Shown in pieces: positions 1,751-18,573 of a DNA stretch of 21,085 nucleotides. The stretch lies in the IMG/VR virus record IMGVR_UViG_3300042516_003420; one strand, written 5' to 3'. Both the position numbers and the translations under genes were made by a program. Under the pieces are notes generated by a model. It worked only from the letters and a program-made list of their open reading frames with translations, was not told where the DNA came from and did no database searches. Numbering within the stretch: the first letter of the stretch is position 1; each line of letters opens with the position of its first letter. The stretch is from an uncultured virus (IMG/VR IMGVR_UViG_3300042516_003420). Lineage: Duplodnaviria > Heunggongvirae > Uroviricota > Caudoviricetes.

Positions 1751-2356
1751 ATGGATCGGTTTCGGCAACGTCTCCGGCATCTAGAGCACCCCGTTACGAG
1801 TGTCCTAGATGTCGGGGCTTATCGTGGCGAATTTGCACGGTTAGCTCGCCAGTTATTTCCTGCTGCACGAATTAAATGCATTGAGGGTGACGAAAGGCAA
1901 GCGTCACTCCTCCAGGCATTTGACACAGACTTTTATCTGCTTGGCAAAGAAACCAAGCAGGTGGATTTCTACACCCTTCCAGAGGAGAGCTGAACAACAG
2001 GCAGTTCCATTTATCGCGAGAACACGGTCTACTACACCAATCCCGTGGTGCTCAAAAAATGGATGTACGCACTGGATGATCTAGAGTTCCCACCGTTTGA
2101 TATGATCAAACTTGATGTTCAAGGCGCAGAGCTTGACATCTTGAAAGGCGGCAAACAATATTTTAAACAAACACAGCCACGGTATTTGCTCCTGGAAACA
2201 TCAGTCCAGCAGTACAACCACGGTGCTCCCTTGGCAGGACGTGTTATCGGATATCTGGATAAAAATGGATACTGCTTGCGAGACATCATTGATGTCCTCT
2301 ATGATCAGAACAATCAGTTGCTCCAGGTTGATTTCCTGTTTGAACGTAATGCCTGA
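1751..2356 (+). CDS. FkbM-family SAM-dependent methyltransferase interrupted by an in-frame TGA at 1991-1993
   Basis: Track ORFs 1751..1993 (VLDVGAYRGEF) and 2045..2356 (MIKLDVQGAELDILKGG) share one frame; the linker reads EES*TTGSSIYRENTVYY, giving a normal-length 201-residue FkbM protein. Confidence 0.85.
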
Positions 2357-4994: not shown

Positions 4995-5152
4995 AACGCA
5001 ATAAGGAGCCCAAGATCCGGGTGAATATGTGCTGGGAATTAGACAAAGAAAGAAAATGCGCCACCCTAGAAAGGAATGACGCATACAAAACACGAGAATG
5101 GGTTGAAGCTAATAATGGAATCGTGTTTTGGTTCCAGGCGTTGCCAAACTAA
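4991..5152 (+). CDS. Small hypothetical protein (53 aa)
   Basis: Not in the track. ATGA overlap with the endolysin stop; MKRNKEPKIRVNMCWELDKERKCATLERNDAYKTREWVEANNGIVFWFQALPN. Confidence 0.7.
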   Translation: MKRNKEPKIRVNMCWELDKERKCATLERNDAYKTREWVEANNGIVFWFQALPN

Positions 5153-5317
5153 TCAACGTTGCTTGGCACGACCAATCACAAGACCACCGATCTCAATGAT
5201 CTTGTAGAGTTTACGCACAAGTTTGTCGTCCTTTGGGGTAGGTGTTAAGGCACAGATTGCAGAACAAGCTGCGTGGATTGCAAGGGCAACCTCTAAATAC
5301 TCATTAAGTTTGCTCAT
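5153..5317 (-). CDS. Small membrane protein, holin-like (54 aa)
   Basis: Not in the track. MSKLNEYLEVALAIHAACSAICALTPTPKDDKLVRKLYKIIEIGGLVIGRAKQR: hydrophobic helix, TPTPKDD turn, basic C-terminus; TAGAAT 20 nt upstream. Confidence 0.7.
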   Translation of the reverse strand: MSKLNEYLEVALAIHAACSAICALTPTPKDDKLVRKLYKIIEIGGLVIGRAKQR

Positions 5318-5335
5318 GGGTTTATCCCGTTTTCT

Positions 5336-5773
5336 TCATTCTAAAGGTTTTGATCTATAGAAAAAGAAACTTTTACTTTCTTCATAAATATTCCATTTCA
5401 TGTTTTCATGCCTCATAAACCAACGTTTCCAAACTCGAAACTGTTTATCTGCTTTTGCTGACTGACAAAAGAAAGTAATAGAGTCACCGTAAGGGATTTG
5501 CGTTTCCCATTCACGAAGAGTACGCACCGCTAAAGCCTGGAACAGGTTGCCTTCTTTACCTGTCAAATTTATATCCAGGCGGCGGGACCTTTTGTTGTTT
5601 CTTCGATTCAACCAATCGCTCGCTTGTCTGTTTGACCGTGCCACGACCATGCTGGCTAGCCACACACAACCATTCGTGGTCCAAATCCAGGGGATAAGTC
5701 GTACCCTGAGGAATATCCCAGTCGGTAAAGAAATCTTCCCAGTCTTCTTCCGTCGCCTCACTCGGTGGGACAT
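5336..5773 (-). CDS. Hypothetical basic, Trp-rich protein (145 aa)
   Basis: ATG-started ORF that fills the gap up to the holin-like gene. Confidence 0.65.
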   Translation of the reverse strand: MSHRVRRRKKTGKISLPTGIFLRVRLIPWIWTTNGCVWLASMVVARSNRQASDWLNRRNNKRSRRLDINLTGKEGNLFQALAVRTLREWETQIPYGDSITFFCQSAKADKQFRVWKRWFMRHENMKWNIYEESKSFFFYRSKPLE

Positions 5774-5795
5774 GTTTAATTTGTTCTTCAGACAT
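5556..5795 (-). CDS. Hypothetical protein (79 aa) with acidic N-terminus, overlapping the 145-aa ORF out of frame
   Basis: ATG shares a base with the upstream TAA (TAATG coupling); MSEEQIKHVPPSEATEEDWEDFFTDWD. Confidence 0.5.
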   Translation of the reverse strand: MSEEQIKHVPPSEATEEDWEDFFTDWDIPQGTTYPLDLDHEWLCVASQHGRGTVKQTSERLVESKKQQKVPPPGYKFDR

Positions 5796-5929
5796 TAGAG
5801 ATCATAAATGCGACATTCAGGAGCAGATGGGTTTTCCTGGCAATACTTTTGAAAATTAGTCATCTTTACCTTGGGTTTTTTGTTGTATTTAAAAAGATTG
5901 CGTTTTAACCAGAGATAGAGAGAGGTCAT
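5795..5929 (-). CDS. cp12: Truncated CP12-like peptide (44 aa), C-terminal disulfide motif only
   Basis: ATGA overlap with the upstream stop; ends FQKYCQENPSAPECRIYDL, matching the CP12 C-terminal motif (F/Y)CxxNPxAxECRxYD. Confidence 0.7.
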   Translation of the reverse strand: MTSLYLWLKRNLFKYNKKPKVKMTNFQKYCQENPSAPECRIYDL

Positions 5930-6669
5930 GGTTGTGTTGCGTAAGGTACAAGAGCCTCTGGGAAAGGAAGGCCCTGCTGGTGCTCTCGTCTCCATGCTTC
6001 GTCCCATTCTGATAGTGAATGCGTATGTAAATCATTCTGAACGTAATCAGACGTTGTGTCGGCTACAACGTAACTTTGGTCAGTGTTTTCATACAAAAGC
6101 AAGCCGTAATCTTCAAGCAAAATATCAAAGGTTGTTACTGGAAACTCAACAACAAAAGATACTTCATAACTCAGTGGTTCGTTTCGTGTTGTAGAAATAC
6201 AAAGGAGATAACTGCCACGATCAAGTGGATAGTAACGTTGGTCCCCTTTATCTAAACGATTTGCAAAAAATTGATTGTAAAGATTTGACTGTCTATTCAT
6301 TACATGCCCAAGATATGGAAAATAAACATCACCATCAATAATTTCAGGGATACTATCGGTGTCAAAAATAGCTCTGCCTTGTATAGGAGCAAGATTTAAA
6401 TCAAAGGTAGAAACATTGATGTATTCAGGTCTTGGACCCCCCTTGGCAATAATGATCCAAGCAGATGATTCAAGGTCAATACGAAACCAGTGGTTGTATG
6501 TTCCTTGTCCATAGCCTCCATTAGAGCTGGAGTTTGTATCGGCACGCCCAACTACTTTGTTCTGAGGCCCCAAAGCCCCTGTTAATTTTCTAACTGACAA
6601 TTGGCTGAAGGGTCCTAATACAAGAGGATTGTCCTGAGTGCGCTGTCTTTGGGCTTCAGAATTGCGCAT
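5926..6669 (-). CDS. Hypothetical protein (247 aa), possibly virion-associated
   Basis: Likely start MRNSEAQRQ at 6669, because the longer track start lies inside the terminator; beta-rich composition; no motif recognised. Confidence 0.75.
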   Translation of the reverse strand: MRNSEAQRQRTQDNPLVLGPFSQLSVRKLTGALGPQNKVVGRADTNSSSNGGYGQGTYNHWFRIDLESSAWIIIAKGGPRPEYINVSTFDLNLAPIQGRAIFDTDSIPEIIDGDVYFPYLGHVMNRQSNLYNQFFANRLDKGDQRYYPLDRGSYLLCISTTRNEPLSYEVSFVVEFPVTTFDILLEDYGLLLYENTDQSYVVADTTSDYVQNDLHTHSLSEWDEAWRREHQQGLPFPEALVPYATQP

Positions 6670-6731
6670 TATTACAGTTACGTTGATGTACTTATATTTT
6701 ACTCTTCGTTTTTTGTAAATAAACGCCAAAG

Positions 6732-6752
6732 AAAAAGCCCCCATTTGGGGGC
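6732..6752 (-). terminator. Rho-independent terminator after the GT4 gene
   Basis: Minus strand GCCCCC-AAAT-GGGGGC followed by TTTTT. Confidence 0.85.
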
Positions 6753-9031: not shown

Positions 9032-9388
9032 TCAGGCTTCAGGAGGCGCCGTTGAGCGCACCAGCTCCTGTTCCTCTGCCTTCTGGGACTTGAGCTTGTA
9101 CTTCAGGAAGTCAGCAGCCTTGTGCGTGTTGGTGGTATCCCCGCAGGTATAGAGGTCGATGGCGGCGTACCCAAGCTCAGGCCAGGTATGAATAGACGCA
9201 TGAGACTCAGCCAGGAGCGCCAGTAGCGTTACGCCCTGCGGCTCAAATTTCTCGCCAATGATGCGAAGGATTGTGGCTTTCGACATCAAAAGGGCAGCCT
9301 CCAGAAGTTCAGACAACCTGTCGTAGTCGTCCAAAACCTCTGGATCACACTCATACAAATCTAAAATTAGGTGACGCCCATTAGACAT
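9032..9388 (-). CDS. speD: S-adenosylmethionine decarboxylase proenzyme (pyruvoyl-dependent, short class 1B type)
   Basis: GRHLILDLYEC, FEPQGVT, LLAESHASIHTWPE (E-S autocleavage site) and DLYTCG. Confidence 0.92.
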   Translation of the reverse strand: MSNGRHLILDLYECDPEVLDDYDRLSELLEAALLMSKATILRIIGEKFEPQGVTLLALLAESHASIHTWPELGYAAIDLYTCGDTTNTHKAADFLKYKLKSQKAEEQELVRSTAPPEA

Positions 9389-13387: not shown

Positions 13388-13492
13388 ATGAAAGAGTTTG
13401 AGATTGTGATCCTAACGCTACTGATTGCCCTCTTCCTTACGGCTACAATCGACATATTCATTTTATTTGGCGGCCTCCATTGGATCCACTAA
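13388..13492 (+). CDS. Small single-pass membrane peptide (34 aa)
   Basis: Not in the track. MKEFEIVILTLLIALFLTATIDIFILFGGLHWIH; fills the gap before hli. Confidence 0.6.
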   Translation: MKEFEIVILTLLIALFLTATIDIFILFGGLHWIH

Positions 13493-13728
13493 CCAAAGCC
13501 AAGCTCTGGCTCGTAGGCCTTTGGCATTGCTTCTCCTGGATTTTTAAAGCAATCTGGGATGAGTACCTGGTCGACCTGCACCCCAGCAAAATTCCCTGGC
13601 ACCCAAATGACTATATATGGTATGCGGAACGCTGGAACGGCAGGGTTGCCATGATTGCCGTCATCACTATCCTGCAGTTGGAATTGATCTACAAGGTCAG
13701 CATTTGGGAGTTTATTGGTGTCCTGTAA
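13480..13728 (+). CDS. hli: High-light inducible protein (HLIP)-like, N-terminally extended
   Basis: AERWNGRVAMI chlorophyll-binding motif (ExxNGRxAM) followed by a hydrophobic helix; start codon (TTG) uncertain. Confidence 0.8.
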   Translation: MDPLTKAKLWLVGLWHCFSWIFKAIWDEYLVDLHPSKIPWHPNDYIWYAERWNGRVAMIAVITILQLELIYKVSIWEFIGVL

Positions 13729-13900
13729 CATCACTCGGTTTTATTTTTGCCAGTCCAACATCACTCTTCAAGAGTTCATAAGGCGTGACTTGCGCAGCCG
13801 GATGGGCATTGCTTTTGATGATGTTGAAACCGTAGAAGCAGATGCTTACGAAGCTAAACTGATCGCAGAAGACGAAGACTACTTAAGGGTGGACCTATGA
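13718..13900 (+). CDS. Hypothetical protein (about 60 aa) with acidic C-terminus
   Basis: GTG/TTG start overlapping the hli end; stop overlaps the next ATG (ATGA). Confidence 0.6.
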   Translation: MSCNITRFYFCQSNITLQEFIRRDLRSRMGIAFDDVETVEADAYEAKLIAEDEDYLRVDL

Positions 13901-14646
13901 CAAAAACTATTCCCATGATTGGCACCATGATTCTCAATGGCGCAGATGACTTGTGGAAACAGTTTGAAAGCATTGATCACCCTGTTGATCGTTACTTTAT
14001 CCTTGACAACTCAATGGGTAAGGATAAAGATGTGTTGCAGATGATCTACGATCTAAAGAGTGACGTAGATTCCTTTGGCCACAAGTACATCAAGAAGGTA
14101 GAGGTTGTACATAACCACATGAACGTTGGCTTCTCTGGTTCTGTCAATCAAATCATCAAACAAAATATCGACTGCCCTTACTGGTGTGTTTTGTCGGTTG
14201 ATTGGCATCCAGAGCCAGGTCAACTCAAGAAACTAGCAAAGCGCTTGGAAGATCCCTTTGTTGGAATTTTGTGTGACGAAAGTCAGAATGGATATTCTTC
14301 CCTTGTGATTGCACCAGAACTTCTTTATGAAGTTGGCTACTTGGACGAAAATTTCTTTCCTGCTTATTACGAAGATAACGACCACCGTTACCGCATGAAG
14401 CTTGCAGGGATTGAGTGGGAGTACTTGCCTTTGAAATACAAACATACTGTTAGCGCAACAATCAAAAGAGATCCTCAGATCTACGCAAAGAATCAGATGA
14501 CCTTTAAAGAGAACGGACGATATTACGTTGAGAAATGGGGTGGCCTCCCTGGTCAAGAGACCTACACGTCTCCTTTTGATATGGACCTCCCCCTTGACTA
14601 TTGGATTTATGATCCTGTTCGCAGCCAGCGACAGCGATGGATCTGA
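13897..14646 (+). CDS. Glycosyltransferase, GT2-like
   Basis: YFILDN, NVGFSGSVNQ, VGYLDENFFPAYYEDNDH and YVEKWGG. Confidence 0.85.
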   Translation: MTKTIPMIGTMILNGADDLWKQFESIDHPVDRYFILDNSMGKDKDVLQMIYDLKSDVDSFGHKYIKKVEVVHNHMNVGFSGSVNQIIKQNIDCPYWCVLSVDWHPEPGQLKKLAKRLEDPFVGILCDESQNGYSSLVIAPELLYEVGYLDENFFPAYYEDNDHRYRMKLAGIEWEYLPLKYKHTVSATIKRDPQIYAKNQMTFKENGRYYVEKWGGLPGQETYTSPFDMDLPLDYWIYDPVRSQRQRWI

Positions 14647-15503
14647 GCGTTTACGGGGCCACGGGAATCATCGGAACCTACTTTAGCGGTTTGTTCCCCT
14701 CCTTTTCAATACCCAGAGAACAGCTGGAGCCCGAGACCGAGAATGTTTTGTATCTAATCAGTACAACTGACAACTCAACATTTATAGAAAATCCCCACAT
14801 TGACATCAATACGAATTTAGTTGAGCTGATGCGCAGGCTTGAAGCTTGTCGCAACAGTAACGTTGAGACCTTCAATTTTGTAAGTAGTTGGTTTGTCTAC
14901 GGACCAAACCATGTGTATCCCGACGAGCAAGTCATCTGCGATCCCAATGGTTTCTATTCAATCACCAAGTACGCAGCTGAAAAACTTGTAAAAGAATATT
15001 GTCAAGTCTTTGGTATCAACTACCGCATCTTCCGGCTGGGCAATGTGTACGGTGGTCCCGACACCGGAAACCAAAAGCGAAACGCCCTGCACTACTTGAT
15101 CAACAACCTGAGAGAAGGCAAGGACATTAATGTACACACCAACGTGTCACGCGACTTCATCCACATCATGGACACCTGCAGGGCCATGGAGTTTCTGTGT
15201 GAGCATGGATATACGAACTGTATCTACAACGTAGGCACAGGGCTTTCCACCAAACTGACCAAAGCCCTTGACAAAGCCAAGAAAATTGGTGGTTTTCATG
15301 GTCAAGTACATCACCATTCCGTCCCGCAGAACTACAACCAGGCGGTAAGTTTTGGTTTAAACTGTGGCAAGCTTGCCTCTCACGGCTTCAAACTTTTAAT
15401 TTCCTTTGAGGAAGGATTGCTCGACCTATGTCTAAATCAAAAGTTCTGTACTCCGGACCGTACTTTGATGGAGCAGAAGTTGAAGCAGCGATTGCCAGCC
15501 TGA
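14637..15503 (+). CDS. NAD(P)-dependent nucleotide-sugar epimerase/reductase (extended SDR)
   Basis: GATGIIG, FVSSWFVYG, YSITK (YxxxK), RLGNVYG and RDFIHI. Confidence 0.88.
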   Translation: MDLSVYGATGIIGTYFSGLFPSFSIPREQLEPETENVLYLISTTDNSTFIENPHIDINTNLVELMRRLEACRNSNVETFNFVSSWFVYGPNHVYPDEQVICDPNGFYSITKYAAEKLVKEYCQVFGINYRIFRLGNVYGGPDTGNQKRNALHYLINNLREGKDINVHTNVSRDFIHIMDTCRAMEFLCEHGYTNCIYNVGTGLSTKLTKALDKAKKIGGFHGQVHHHSVPQNYNQAVSFGLNCGKLASHGFKLLISFEEGLLDLCLNQKFCTPDRTLMEQKLKQRLPA

Positions 15504-16645
15504 GGGAAGGAGCCTGGTTCCCTGCTGGCAAAGAGGTTGACAAATTTGAAAAGCAATTCTCCCGCAAGTTTGGATTCAACTCCTCACTGATGGTGAACAG
15601 CGGCAGCTCTGCCAACCTGGTCATGGTTGCCGCCCTTAAGAAGTACTTTGGTTGGGCAGATGGCTCCGAAGTGATTGTTAGCGTGGTTGGTTTCCCAACG
15701 ACAATTAACCCAATCCTGCAAAACAATCTGGTCCCTAAGTTTGTTGATATCACTTGGGACGACCTGAATTGGGATCTGGATCAAGTTGAAAATGCAATCA
15801 ACAGCAAAACAGTAGCTGTTTTCAGCAGCCCAGTGCTAGGCAACAGCTACGACCTGGACCGACTGCTTGAAATCTGCGACAAAAACAAGATCCAATACAT
15901 TGCCGACAACTGCGATTCCCTTGGTTCCAAGTGGCGTGATGATTACCTGACCGCCAATGCAGTTGCTGCATCTTGCTCCTTCTATCCAGCGCATCACATC
16001 ACAACGATGGAAGGGGGTATGGTGTCCTCCAACATCCCGGAAGTTGTTACGCTTGCACGGCAGTTTGCCTGGTGGGGCCGCGATTGTTATTGCGTTGGCG
16101 CCTGCAATCAGCTGATCAACGGTAGTTGCGGCAAGCGTTTTGACAAGTGGCTCCCTGGTTATGACGGGATTGTTGATCACAAGTATGTGTTCAGCCAGAT
16201 CGGTTACAACTTGAAACCCCTGGATCTACAAGGAGCCGTGGGTCAAGTTCAGCTTTCTAAATTTGAGGAAATCCACACAAAGCGTCGCTATAACTACAAA
16301 CAAATCAAAGAGATCCTTGCGTTATTAGGTACAGAAGTTCGTGTTGTTGACGAGCAACCCGAAGCAGAAACCTCCTGGTTTGGTGTGCCTATTGTTTGTA
16401 ACAATGCAAAAGTCAAGGAAGGTCTTCAGCTTTGGTTAGAAGAGAACGGAGTGCAAACCCGTAATTACTTCGCAGGCAACCTACTGCTCCATCCTGCGTA
16501 TCGGCACTTAGGTGAGGCAAAGAATTATCCCAATGCTTACCAAGTTCTTAAGAATGTGTTCTTTATGGGTACTGCACCTACGCTGACCAAAGAAAACCTG
16601 GATTACATTTCTGAAGTTGTTGGTGAATATTCCCTACAAAAGTAG
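15428..16645 (+). CDS. rfbH: NDP-4-keto-6-deoxyglucose 3-dehydrase (E1; RfbH/DdhC type, DegT family)
   Basis: NSGSSANL, DNCDSLG, SFYPAHHIT (His at the usual Schiff-base Lys position), and WGRDCYC...SCGKRF...DHKY Fe-S ligand loop. Confidence 0.88.
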   Translation: MSKSKVLYSGPYFDGAEVEAAIASLREGAWFPAGKEVDKFEKQFSRKFGFNSSLMVNSGSSANLVMVAALKKYFGWADGSEVIVSVVGFPTTINPILQNNLVPKFVDITWDDLNWDLDQVENAINSKTVAVFSSPVLGNSYDLDRLLEICDKNKIQYIADNCDSLGSKWRDDYLTANAVAASCSFYPAHHITTMEGGMVSSNIPEVVTLARQFAWWGRDCYCVGACNQLINGSCGKRFDKWLPGYDGIVDHKYVFSQIGYNLKPLDLQGAVGQVQLSKFEEIHTKRRYNYKQIKEILALLGTEVRVVDEQPEAETSWFGVPIVCNNAKVKEGLQLWLEENGVQTRNYFAGNLLLHPAYRHLGEAKNYPNAYQVLKNVFFMGTAPTLTKENLDYISEVVGEYSLQK

Positions 16646-16668
16646 GAAGCCAACCGAACTAGCAGTCA

Positions 16669-16727
16669 AACGTAACTGTGCCAAACTATAAGTAGATCAA
16701 CTGTCTACCATGCTTGGCACAGTCGTT
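16669..16727. repeat. Intergenic long hairpin / inverted repeat
   Basis: ACTGTGCCAA (16675-16684) and TTGGCACAGT (16714-16723) are perfectly complementary; inner GTAGA/TCTAC and outer AACG/CGTT pairs. Confidence 0.7.
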
Positions 16728-16754
16728 ATAGTAAGGGAACCAACAGCATCCGAA

Positions 16755-16952
16755 ATGGCGCTTTCAAATCAAGTAAAAGAAGCAGTCAAACTTGCGACCG
16801 ACAACCTTCGGGATGCTTTGGCATTTGCTGCACGAGCCGAACACCCTATTACCATCAATGCCATCTCTGATATTTTAATGCGCCTTGAATCACTAGAATG
16901 CATGGATGAATTGATGGAAAAGTTTGGACGGCCCCAAAGCCCGAGCTTATAA
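16755..16952 (+). CDS. Small helical hypothetical protein of a cyanophage-type family (65 aa)
   Basis: MALSNQVKEAV...LRDALAFAARAE, recalled from cyanophage hypotheticals; TATAGT 22 nt upstream. Confidence 0.75.
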   Translation: MALSNQVKEAVKLATDNLRDALAFAARAEHPITINAISDILMRLESLECMDELMEKFGRPQSPSL

Positions 16953-17040
16953 ATTACCAACGGAAGAAGAACGGCTAGAGAAATTCCTTGGCCAATTAGA
17001 TTCCGTTTTTCCTGGCCTGCCAAACCCATATGAACCGCGC

Positions 17041-17592
17041 ATGAAGGTTTATCCTTTAAGTTTTGATGGCGTCAAGCTAATCACAGTTGATCGTTACGAA
17101 GATCAGCGCGGAACGTTTTCAGACCACTGGCACGAGATCAAACATAAGGAGATCTTTGGCGACGTTACGTTCAAGCAAGATTCTTATGTGATCTCAAACC
17201 GTGGTGTGATTCGTGGCCTGCACTACCAGATCCCACCTCATGACCAGGGGAAATTGGTGCGTTGCATCCGTGGCAGCATCCAAGATGTTGTGGTTGATCT
17301 GCGCAAAAGCTCCGAAACATTTGGGCACTGGTTGCAGGTCAGGCTTGATGGAGACATCAGGCACCAGGATATGTTGTGGATCCCACCTGGCCTTGCCCAT
17401 GGGTATTGCGTTCTTGGTGATCGAGCAGATGTGCTGTACAAGATGACGCAAGTGCATGATGTTGAGCACGAGCGTACACTGCTCTGGAACGATAAAGACC
17501 TAGATATACCTTGGGAAAAAGCAAGGGTACCAATCCTTTCAGACAAAGATAAAAAGGGAACTCCGTTTAAACAAGCTGATCTTTTTGACTAA
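17041..17592 (+). CDS. rmlC: dTDP-4-dehydrorhamnose 3,5-epimerase family (frame is open upstream to TTG 16924)
   Basis: DQRGTF, RGLHYQ, QGKLVRC, VVVDLRK, LWIPPGLAHG and LSDKD. Confidence 0.92.
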   Translation: MKVYPLSFDGVKLITVDRYEDQRGTFSDHWHEIKHKEIFGDVTFKQDSYVISNRGVIRGLHYQIPPHDQGKLVRCIRGSIQDVVVDLRKSSETFGHWLQVRLDGDIRHQDMLWIPPGLAHGYCVLGDRADVLYKMTQVHDVEHERTLLWNDKDLDIPWEKARVPILSDKDKKGTPFKQADLFD

Positions 17593-17601
17593 TATAAACA
17601 C

Positions 17602-18573
17602 ATGGAAAAAATTCTTGTCACCGGCGGTGCCGGTTTTATTGGACGGCATTTGATTAAGCGCCTGTTAACCACAACAGATGCGATGATCTACAGCTTTGAC
17701 AAGTTGGGATATGCCAGTAATGCAGCAGAGTTGAATACCTATCCTGATGCGCATAATCGCTACCAGCTGTTGCCGTACAACCTGGTAGACGAGGGTACTA
17801 TTGAAGAATGGATTAAGATCCTGCAACCCAGCAAAATCTTTCATCTAGCCGCTGAAAGCCACGTAGACAATTCCATTCGTTCACCAAAAGATTTCATCTA
17901 TAGCAATATTGTTGGAACATTTAATCTCCTGGAGGCATGCCGCATTTATCTTGAAGACCCGTTTAAGTTCTTACATGTCAGTACCGATGAAGTGTTTGGT
18001 TCTCTTCATCCAGACACTGTTGATACTTACTTCGTTGAGACAACACCCTATAACCCACGTTCCCCATACTCAGCCAGCAAAGCAGCCAGTGACCACCTTG
18101 TGATGGCCTGGTACAACACCTATAAGTTTCCGGCGGTCATTACAAATTGCAGCAATAACTACGGTCCTGGACAGCATCCAGAGAAGTTGATACCCATGAC
18201 TATTACCAATGCATTGAAGGGGGAGAAGATTACGATCCATGGAAAAGGAGGTAACATCCGTGACTGGCTTCATGTTGAAGATCATATTGATGCTCTTCTT
18301 CTTGTTATGAAGAAAGGTGTGATCGGTCAGCAGTATTGCATTGGAGGAGACGGAGAAAAAACCAACATGGAAGTTGTCACAACCATCTGTCAACTGCTGG
18401 ATGAACTACGACCAGAGCATGCTCCCCATAGCCAACTAATCAAACATGTCAAGGATCGTCCTGGTAATGACCTGAAGTATGCCATTGATCCAACTAAGAT
18501 TAGGAATCTTGGCTGGAACGCCAAGATTAATTTTGAAACAGGATTAAAGAAATTGATTGAGGGTTACTTATAA
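17602..18573 (+). CDS. rmlB: dTDP-glucose 4,6-dehydratase
   Basis: VTGGAGFIG, HLAAESHVD, HVSTDEVFG, PYSASKA, NCSNNYGP and DRPGND. Confidence 0.95.
   Translation: MEKILVTGGAGFIGRHLIKRLLTTTDAMIYSFDKLGYASNAAELNTYPDAHNRYQLLPYNLVDEGTIEEWIKILQPSKIFHLAAESHVDNSIRSPKDFIYSNIVGTFNLLEACRIYLEDPFKFLHVSTDEVFGSLHPDTVDTYFVETTPYNPRSPYSASKAASDHLVMAWYNTYKFPAVITNCSNNYGPGQHPEKLIPMTITNALKGEKITIHGKGGNIRDWLHVEDHIDALLLVMKKGVIGQQYCIGGDGEKTNMEVVTTICQLLDELRPEHAPHSQLIKHVKDRPGNDLKYAIDPTKIRNLGWNAKINFETGLKKLIEGYL

Follow-up and report, generated by a model that had tools for sequence, protein, structure and literature searches.

A cyanophage gene that encodes only the GAPDH-binding tail of CP12, a possible competitor of host CP12

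Background

Virome studies have counted phage cp12 genes as an indicator of Calvin-cycle shut-down (e.g. in passages of PMC11421388). In the host complex, as described in parts of PMC6800369, CP12 inserts its residues 55–75 into the active site of GAPDH and plugs a positively charged cleft of PRK with its acidic hairpin; assembly is sequential, CP12 being placed on GAPDH before PRK is bound. The stretch of DNA analysed here, 21,085 nucleotides from an uncultured virus (IMG/VR record IMGVR_UViG_3300042516_003420; "the window" below), carries a 44-codon reading frame that resembles only the GAPDH-binding end of this protein, and the question that it raises is what such a tail, detached from the rest of CP12, does in an infected cell.

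The phage and the position of the gene

By its sequence the window is that of an S-EIV1-like cyanophage. S-EIV1 is a Synechococcus phage from a high Arctic lake with a latent period of over 7 days (second-hand in a passage of PMC8790148), and among 50,697 phage records it alone matches the gene just upstream of the CP12-like frame (59.6%) and alone matches the primase over its full length (57.6% identical); primase, upstream gene and gene order are common to the two. The upstream gene has no confirmed relative in prokaryote genome contigs. The window also encodes an endolysin, a primase, an exonuclease, a SAM decarboxylase (9032–9388, minus strand), an hli-like protein (13480–13728, plus strand) and a cluster of sugar-nucleotide enzymes (epimerase, DegT-type aminotransferase, RmlC and dehydratase; 13897–18573, plus strand).

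The tail-only CP12 gene occupies positions 5795..5929 of the minus strand, a strand that the earlier note on this DNA did not give, and runs from the ATG at 5929 to the TAA at 5795. Its 44-aa product ends in YCQENPSAPECRIYDL, contains only two cysteines (residues 30 and 39) and has a net charge of +6; its N-terminus is Lys-rich and not acidic, as had been noticed at first sight, with 6 Lys, 1 Arg and no Asp or Glu among residues 1–23 (leader charge +7). The start overlaps the stop of the upstream gene in an ATGA (5926..5929), from which we infer translational coupling of the two genes, and at the other end its stop shares a TAATG (5793..5797) with the start of the following ORF. No Shine-Dalgarno-like sequence is evident before the start at 5929, and promoter-like sites are at chance level (5 found, 5.0 expected). 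The contig from one RNA run covers 5105–5318 only, outside the gene, and is silent on its expression.

The upstream neighbour (5926..6744, minus strand) is a conserved phage gene of 272 codons from its first ATG; it matches no Pfam or PHROG family and is the fixed neighbour by which the family described below was found. Its protein may be a PPC-like beta-sandwich (an Atlas lead only); ahead of a conserved C-terminal motif it has an insertion that varies, and its relatives are 247–374 aa long. The next ORF downstream, of 79 aa (5556..5795, minus strand), is present in part of the loci; it and a 145-aa ORF (5336–5773) overlap by 218 bases in different frames within 5336–5795 of the minus strand, and both are intact in a related locus, L002.

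CP12 homology of the tail

Sequence comparison assigns only about the last 21 residues of the 44-aa peptide to CP12. Pfam family PF02672 (CP12) is matched with 37.3 bits against a cut-off of 22.7 (E 4.9e-09), residues 19–43 lying on profile positions 46–70 only, and the best match in the PDB is 3zdf_C, a 23-residue CP12 peptide (E 3e-06), with further matches to 6gfo_E, 3b1j_C and 5nmu (CBS-CP12). These searches, the profile search proposed in the earlier note among them, bear out its identification of a CP12 C-terminal loop. Residues 22–43 align with the GAPDH-binding domain of CP12 in the PDB comparison, and alignment of the short peptides to host CP12 is confined to 21 C-terminal columns. 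The module so delimited, residues 24–44 (5798..5860, minus strand), comprises a short helix, a C30-x3-P-x4-C39 loop and an RIYD-L end. The loop, C30-QEN-P-SAPE-C39, contains the C-terminal CxxxPxxxxC pair by which the CP12 family is defined (in passages of PMC9406205), and E38 within it would be the equivalent of Glu69 by the alignment with 6gfo_E.

Profiles of the canonical hairpin and of the N-terminal region of CP12-C(M) found no match in any of the six frames of 118 records, the window included; three full-length loci included as controls scored 62–86 bits, although those controls formed part of the profiles. A frameshifted full-length CP12 is ruled out by this lack of a hairpin remnant. 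At E 0.01, 41 of 42 selected short homologues match PF02672, and automatic Pfam labels are already attached to such proteins, for instance to a 40-aa cluster of 77 members (79% CP12). Other searches were less informative: Foldseek with the 44-aa model, which is too small for an informative search, gave no match, the first ESM Atlas matches (0.86–0.89) are a lead only, and a word-based search for homologues gave back nothing but the query protein, which reflects the limit of a short query and is no proof of uniqueness.

Relation to known CP12 proteins

The canonical CP12-N/C of Thermosynechococcus elongatus (6GFO/6GVE) matches residues 22–43 of the peptide through its GAPDH-binding domain, and the phage gene is a natural counterpart close to the CP12 C-terminal peptides crystallised on GAPDH (3ZDF, 3B1J); in contrast to CP12-N/C, the window peptide has no PRK-binding hairpin, has one disulfide only and is positively charged. 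The CP12-C(M) proteins of picocyanobacteria and T4-like cyanophages (S-CREM1, P-HM2), 70–72 aa long and in the latter also phage-borne, share with it the CxxxPxxxxC loop and the R-I/V-Y-D/E end, and a phage consensus of this type inhibits both GAPDH and PRK (in the portion of bioRxiv 10.64898/2026.07.21.739770 covered). They retain an acidic N-terminal region of ~50 residues, whereas the short family has instead a basic and hydrophobic leader of 15–30 residues.

The earlier note had pointed to the missing AWDxVEEL core and N-terminal Cys pair. Both are indeed absent, but this is not distinctive, because picocyanobacterial and ~70-aa phage CP12s lack them too: the CP12s fetched from Cyanobium, Synechococcus and Prochlorococcus are 72 aa long without AWD_VEEL or N-terminal Cys, that of S-CREM1 is alike, and the same is described for 80 cyanophage CP12s of ~70 aa (same preprint). 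What is new in the short family, as far as its sequences tell, is that a basic, hydrophobic helix takes the place of the entire acidic hairpin and that Glu69 is frequently lost.

The use of a CP12 tail without a stand-alone hairpin has parallels in the GapB C-terminal extension, ADK3 and CBS-CP12, but in these it is fused to an enzyme or to CBS domains and acts in cis or on other targets, whereas the phage peptide is free; no GAPDH fusion of the GapB type is present here, the ORF standing alone between two non-GAPDH genes. S-EIV1 itself (KJ410740.1) has a 45-aa homologue on its minus strand (ORF 5931–6068), left unannotated in the record, with the same upstream neighbour and 41% identity over the whole length; it differs in having Ser for Glu69 and in being followed by a gene annotated as PurM.

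Cyanobacterial CP12s have been divided into eight classes according to Cys pairs, core and CBS fusion (passages of PMC3906501 and PMC9406205), and a 2026 survey of 1,421 CP12s discarded sequences under 50 aa (part of bioRxiv 10.64898/2026.09.10.750766). In the literature searched we found no description of a tail-only phage CP12, although supplements or the S-EIV1 genome paper could mention short forms; the passages covered of PMC11421388, PMC10665884 and PMC11257934 give neither lengths nor short forms.

Distribution, conservation and selection

Among 30 viral loci found via the upstream gene alone, 28 have a tail-only CP12 at the same place (27 by script from the tail motif and L002 on inspection), and the other two, L020 and L023, are cleanly without it. 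Metagenome loci, partly the same contigs as the viral set, have the gene in 31 of 38 cases (29 by script and 2 on inspection); four lack it, two end too early and one is left over. With further loci added by pattern scans, the tail motif is present in 142 records, and 118 of these (the window and repeated fetches counted) adjoin the upstream gene. They give 69 distinct peptides of 37–55 aa (63 are shorter than 50 aa), which a limit of 70% identity reduces to 35 representatives, so that the first impression of a product shorter than the ~70-aa cyanophage CP12 holds for the family. When 1.84 billion representatives were searched with the family profile, 140 matched, 87 of them at most 55 aa long and 61 under 50 aa; some of these may be fragments. 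In a set of 23 phage records a CP12 match is found in 21, of which 20 are S-EIV1-like with the short form only, and the remaining one, a fragment, has a full-length copy.

The window copy has two other in-frame ATGs. The one at 5863, which the earlier note had remarked upon, would give 22 aa, and the one at 6007, which it missed, 70 aa; the extension from the latter sits within the upstream gene and adds no CP12 match in Pfam. Of the 69 distinct peptides only 4 have an ATG 21–25 codons from the end and 5 a start that would yield at least 65 aa; in 54 the frame is closed earlier. The start overlaps the upstream stop by four bases (−4) in 54 of the 69 and lies at −1 to +6 in the rest, homologue starts having been picked by closeness to that stop. 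The 44-aa form from the ATG at 5929 is the gene, since the overlapping start is kept across the family and the shorter and longer starts are rare.

Both parts of the peptide are under purifying selection. In 20 non-overlapping pairs (pS about 0.39), dN/dS is 0.11 for codons 2–14 and 0.10 for the last 21 codons; these had been selected to match in length and to share at least 65% protein identity, a choice that lowers the ratio to some extent. The conservation by which the earlier note proposed to judge the ORF is thus found in the leader as well as in the tail.

Within the tail both Cys, the Pro and the Tyr are invariant in 18 distinct peptides found by the neighbour gene, an invariance partly built in by a detection motif that required the Cys pair and the Tyr; one Cys is missing in a few short homologues (P0012, P0019). 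The Glu69 equivalent is variable: 16 of the 35 representatives have it, compared with all 10 of the full-length phage CP12s that the same scans gave (Fisher p 0.002), and among the 18 neighbour-found peptides 7 do. On a tree built from the neighbour protein, with 34 of the 35 rows, its state switches 5 to 10 times. Mean tail charge is −1.2 in the short family and −4.2 in full-length phage CP12. Two further figures are not used as support: the 66 of 68 counted for Glu69 in hosts come from a search pattern that fixed this residue, which makes the count largely circular, and the frequency of W or S after the Pro is biased by the search patterns.

The leader

Residues 1–15 (5885..5929, minus strand) form a basic, hydrophobic leader that by sequence is without homology to the CP12 hairpin. 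It is joined to the tail by a Lys-rich linker, residues 16–23 (5861..5884, minus strand), which is variable in length and sequence and contains the non-conserved ATG at 5863. AlphaFold2 predicts helices at residues 2–15 and 25–32 of the peptide (mean pLDDT 79). The leader charge is +2 or more in 33 of 35 representatives and neutral or acidic in the other two, compared with a mean of −4.7 for host and phage CP12 hairpins, and 31 of 35 have no acidic residue at positions 2–14; an extra Cys is present in 14 of 35. Leader hydrophobicity is 0.68, against 0.23 for other N-termini of the same loci (n=176). On the Eisenberg scale, which was tried first, amphipathy of the leaders falls short of significance, with a single leader of the 35 at p<0.05 and a combined p of 0.08; on the Fauchere-Pliska scale their helical moment is 0.44 against 0.32 in shuffles (p 0.0002). 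This amphipathy is a property of the family, the window leader's own moment being low (0.33 against a shuffle mean of 0.32).

Predicted interaction with Gap2 and proposed function

Homology and modelling together make it probable that the tail binds Gap2. A complex model of the peptide with two copies of Cyanobium Gap2, a stand-in for the enzyme of the phage host, and NAD scored 0.76, against 0.00 for the best of three controls; the mark applied to this score, rough in this case, is attained by 116 of 157 solved pairs and by 2 of 215 mismatched ones. Model runs agree in at least 97% of contacts with a partner pLDDT of at least 69, and they place residues 26–44 on the catalytic Cys157/His184 and the 187–203 loop of Gap2; the leader makes no confident contact. 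Structure prediction with Gap2, suggested in the earlier note, thus puts the tail in the active site, a result that is to be read as likeness to known complexes and not as binding, because similar complexes are already solved.

We would picture the action of the gene as follows. The phage would produce the 44-aa peptide by translation coupled to the upstream gene, and its tail would fold as a Cys30–Cys39 loop and enter the active-site cleft of the host Calvin-cycle Gap2 as the host CP12 tail does. It would not bridge Gap2 to PRK, because the acidic hairpin is absent and the basic leader would be repelled by the positively charged PRK cleft. The peptide would thus fill CP12 sites, inhibit Gap2 in part and exclude PRK from the dark complex, and the host's off-switch would be weakened during infection. 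The composition of the conserved hydrophobic-basic helix hints that it might tether the peptide to a membrane surface.

Our preferred reading, to which sequence and model lend somewhat less than an even chance, is thus a competitor of host CP12 that occupies Gap2 without capturing PRK, and the earlier suggestion of a dominant-negative competitor to the GAPDH-CP12-PRK assembly stays viable in this form. Competition is the expected net effect because Gap2 binding precedes PRK capture and because NADP(H) use is fully blocked only with the avidity that the ternary complex provides (passages of PMC6800369). According to the same source the binary GAPDH-CP12 complex keeps its Vmax with NADP+ at a higher apparent Km and only the ternary complex is fully blocked, so the tail alone may inhibit weakly, which favours a competitor. 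Glu69 keeps NADP(H) out of the neighbouring site by a clash (same source), and its frequent loss in the family would be expected if inhibition matters less than occupancy. S-EIV1-like phages are also mostly without the Calvin shut-down companion genes of T4-like cyanophages: with positive search controls throughout, transaldolase is found in 0 of 23 phage records, zwf in 0 of 17 and ribonucleotide reductase in 1 of 17.

Several points count against a competitor. The window copy retains Glu69, and the lost acidity of the family's tail may weaken Gap2 binding. An excess of CP12 fills all four Gap2 sites (at 10-fold excess, passages of PMC6800369), which should result in inhibition. For CBS-CP12, whose tail is near-perfect, neither a ternary complex nor a pull-down partner was found (in the part of PMC6142219 covered), so that such a tail need not act on GAPDH. 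PRK capture by the 72-aa host CP12 itself rests, in the passages covered, on a phage-type consensus in Synechocystis and on simulations.

A more far-reaching version of the competitor, which we offer as speculative and rather doubtful, is that the S-EIV1-like tail-only CP12 would act as an anti-CP12: a membrane-tethered decoy on Gap2 that blocks PRK capture, is unmoved by NADPH where Glu69 has been dropped and leaves carbon fixation on through a long infection, tail-only forms having arisen in several phage contexts. If true, this would reverse the role that textbooks give to phage CP12.

Alternative explanations

Sequence and model together present the tail-only CP12 as a real, widespread and selected variant whose effect may have either sign, and the opposite sign, that of an inhibitor of Gap2 only, comes a close second to the competitor, although it too is less likely than not. 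The tail would block Gap2 and spare PRK, saving NADPH and stopping the reductive step; the leader would replace the avidity of PRK by a membrane tether or self-association, or high expression would fill the four sites, and Glu69 loss would give resistance to displacement by NADPH in the light. The docking model serves this explanation as well as it does the competitor, and the purifying selection on the leader agrees with it. The GapB C-terminal extension is a precedent (passages of PMC6800369 and PMC9406205), the binary complex does raise the apparent Km for NADP+ and slow NAD+ turnover, and full-length phage-type CP12 inhibits in the light (bioRxiv 10.64898/2026.07.21.739770, in part); a 47-aa tail-only gene of another phage, directly before ribonucleotide reductase (below), would also fit. 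On the other side stand the unlowered binary Vmax with NADP+ and the scarcity, in the records above, of consumers of the spared NADPH. The earlier note had thought of a redox-gated inhibitor; the inhibitor survives, but gating is doubtful, because full-length phage-type CP12 inhibited even under reducing conditions (same preprint).

Still less likely is co-option of the tail for a different partner or function (a host enzyme, a thioredoxin decoy, metal, virion or lysis), GAPDH binding being lost or incidental. The less acidic tail and the at least five changes of Glu69 would suit this, as would the CBS-CP12 precedent (PMC6142219, in part), the extra leader cysteines and the coupling of the gene behind a PPC-like protein near the endolysin; but the residues that are kept, the Cys loop and the R-I-Y-D/E end, are those of the modelled Gap2 interface, and full-length phage cp12 genes likewise sit amid unrelated large genes. 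A virion role is further disfavoured by the one clade cleanly without the gene (L020, L023 and the four metagenome loci), which indicates that it is not essential for the virion. The two near-identical records of L020 and L023 (G017/G018), which have no short cp12, are the only ones of 17 with psbA, a single event and so anecdotal.

We regard as improbable an ordinary phage CP12 in miniature, in which the leader stands in for the hairpin and the peptide still bridges Gap2 and PRK: phage-type CP12 without AWD_VEEL still lowered PRK activity (bioRxiv 10.64898/2026.07.21.739770, in part) and the leader is conserved and predicted helical, but the positively charged PRK cleft binds an acidic patch (PMC6800369, in part), nearly all leaders have no acidic residue at positions 2–14, and the leader is a single helix and no hairpin. 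Very improbable is a true product of 22 or 70 aa, or an ORF that is a decaying remnant or chance match, since for the alternative starts there are only the two ATGs of the window copy and the lack of a Shine-Dalgarno-like sequence, while their rarity in the family, the prevalent −4 overlap and the low dN/dS of the leader all speak against it.

Many short cp12 matches, which by their sequence cannot bridge PRK, may do less than the shut-down for which they are counted, or the reverse. The peptide would also be a natural separation-of-function allele, the GAPDH arm alone, in which the role of Glu69 in NADPH sensitivity can be addressed; a synthetic peptide and a cultured phage make both CP12 questions testable, and the peptide may serve as a compact Gap2 regulator for engineering.

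Other tail-only genes and minor observations

Other tail-only CP12 genes have unrelated acidic or neutral leaders and lie in other gene contexts, which suggests repeated origin of such genes. Two loci of a different phage (L122:1408–1551 and L143) have a 47-aa form whose leader is acidic and whose gene lies directly upstream of ribonucleotide reductase, with a primase nearby, and forms of 51–57 aa are found in yet other contexts (L102:1387–1551, L114:1378–1551, L130:1494–1649 and L134). The cultured siphovirus S-CBS4 encodes an 80-aa "hypothetical protein", gp008 (L032:2839–3081), that ends in a CP12 tail and whose N-terminal part has no other match among phage records. A second CP12 paralogue is present in three of five picocyanobacterial genomes (L283, L284 and L282), in two of them with Asn for Glu69.

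Elsewhere in the window, a conserved hydrophobic ORF of 54 aa (5153–5317, minus strand; phrog_9685) faces the endolysin gene, and its description as holin-like is a guess; the 214-base RNA contig mentioned above (5105–5318) spans it. A FkbM-type methyltransferase frame (1751–2356, plus strand) is interrupted by a single in-frame TGA at 1991–1993, and both halves match methyltransferase families; this TGA, an ordinary stop elsewhere in the window, may be a sequencing error, a nonsense change or a site of read-through.
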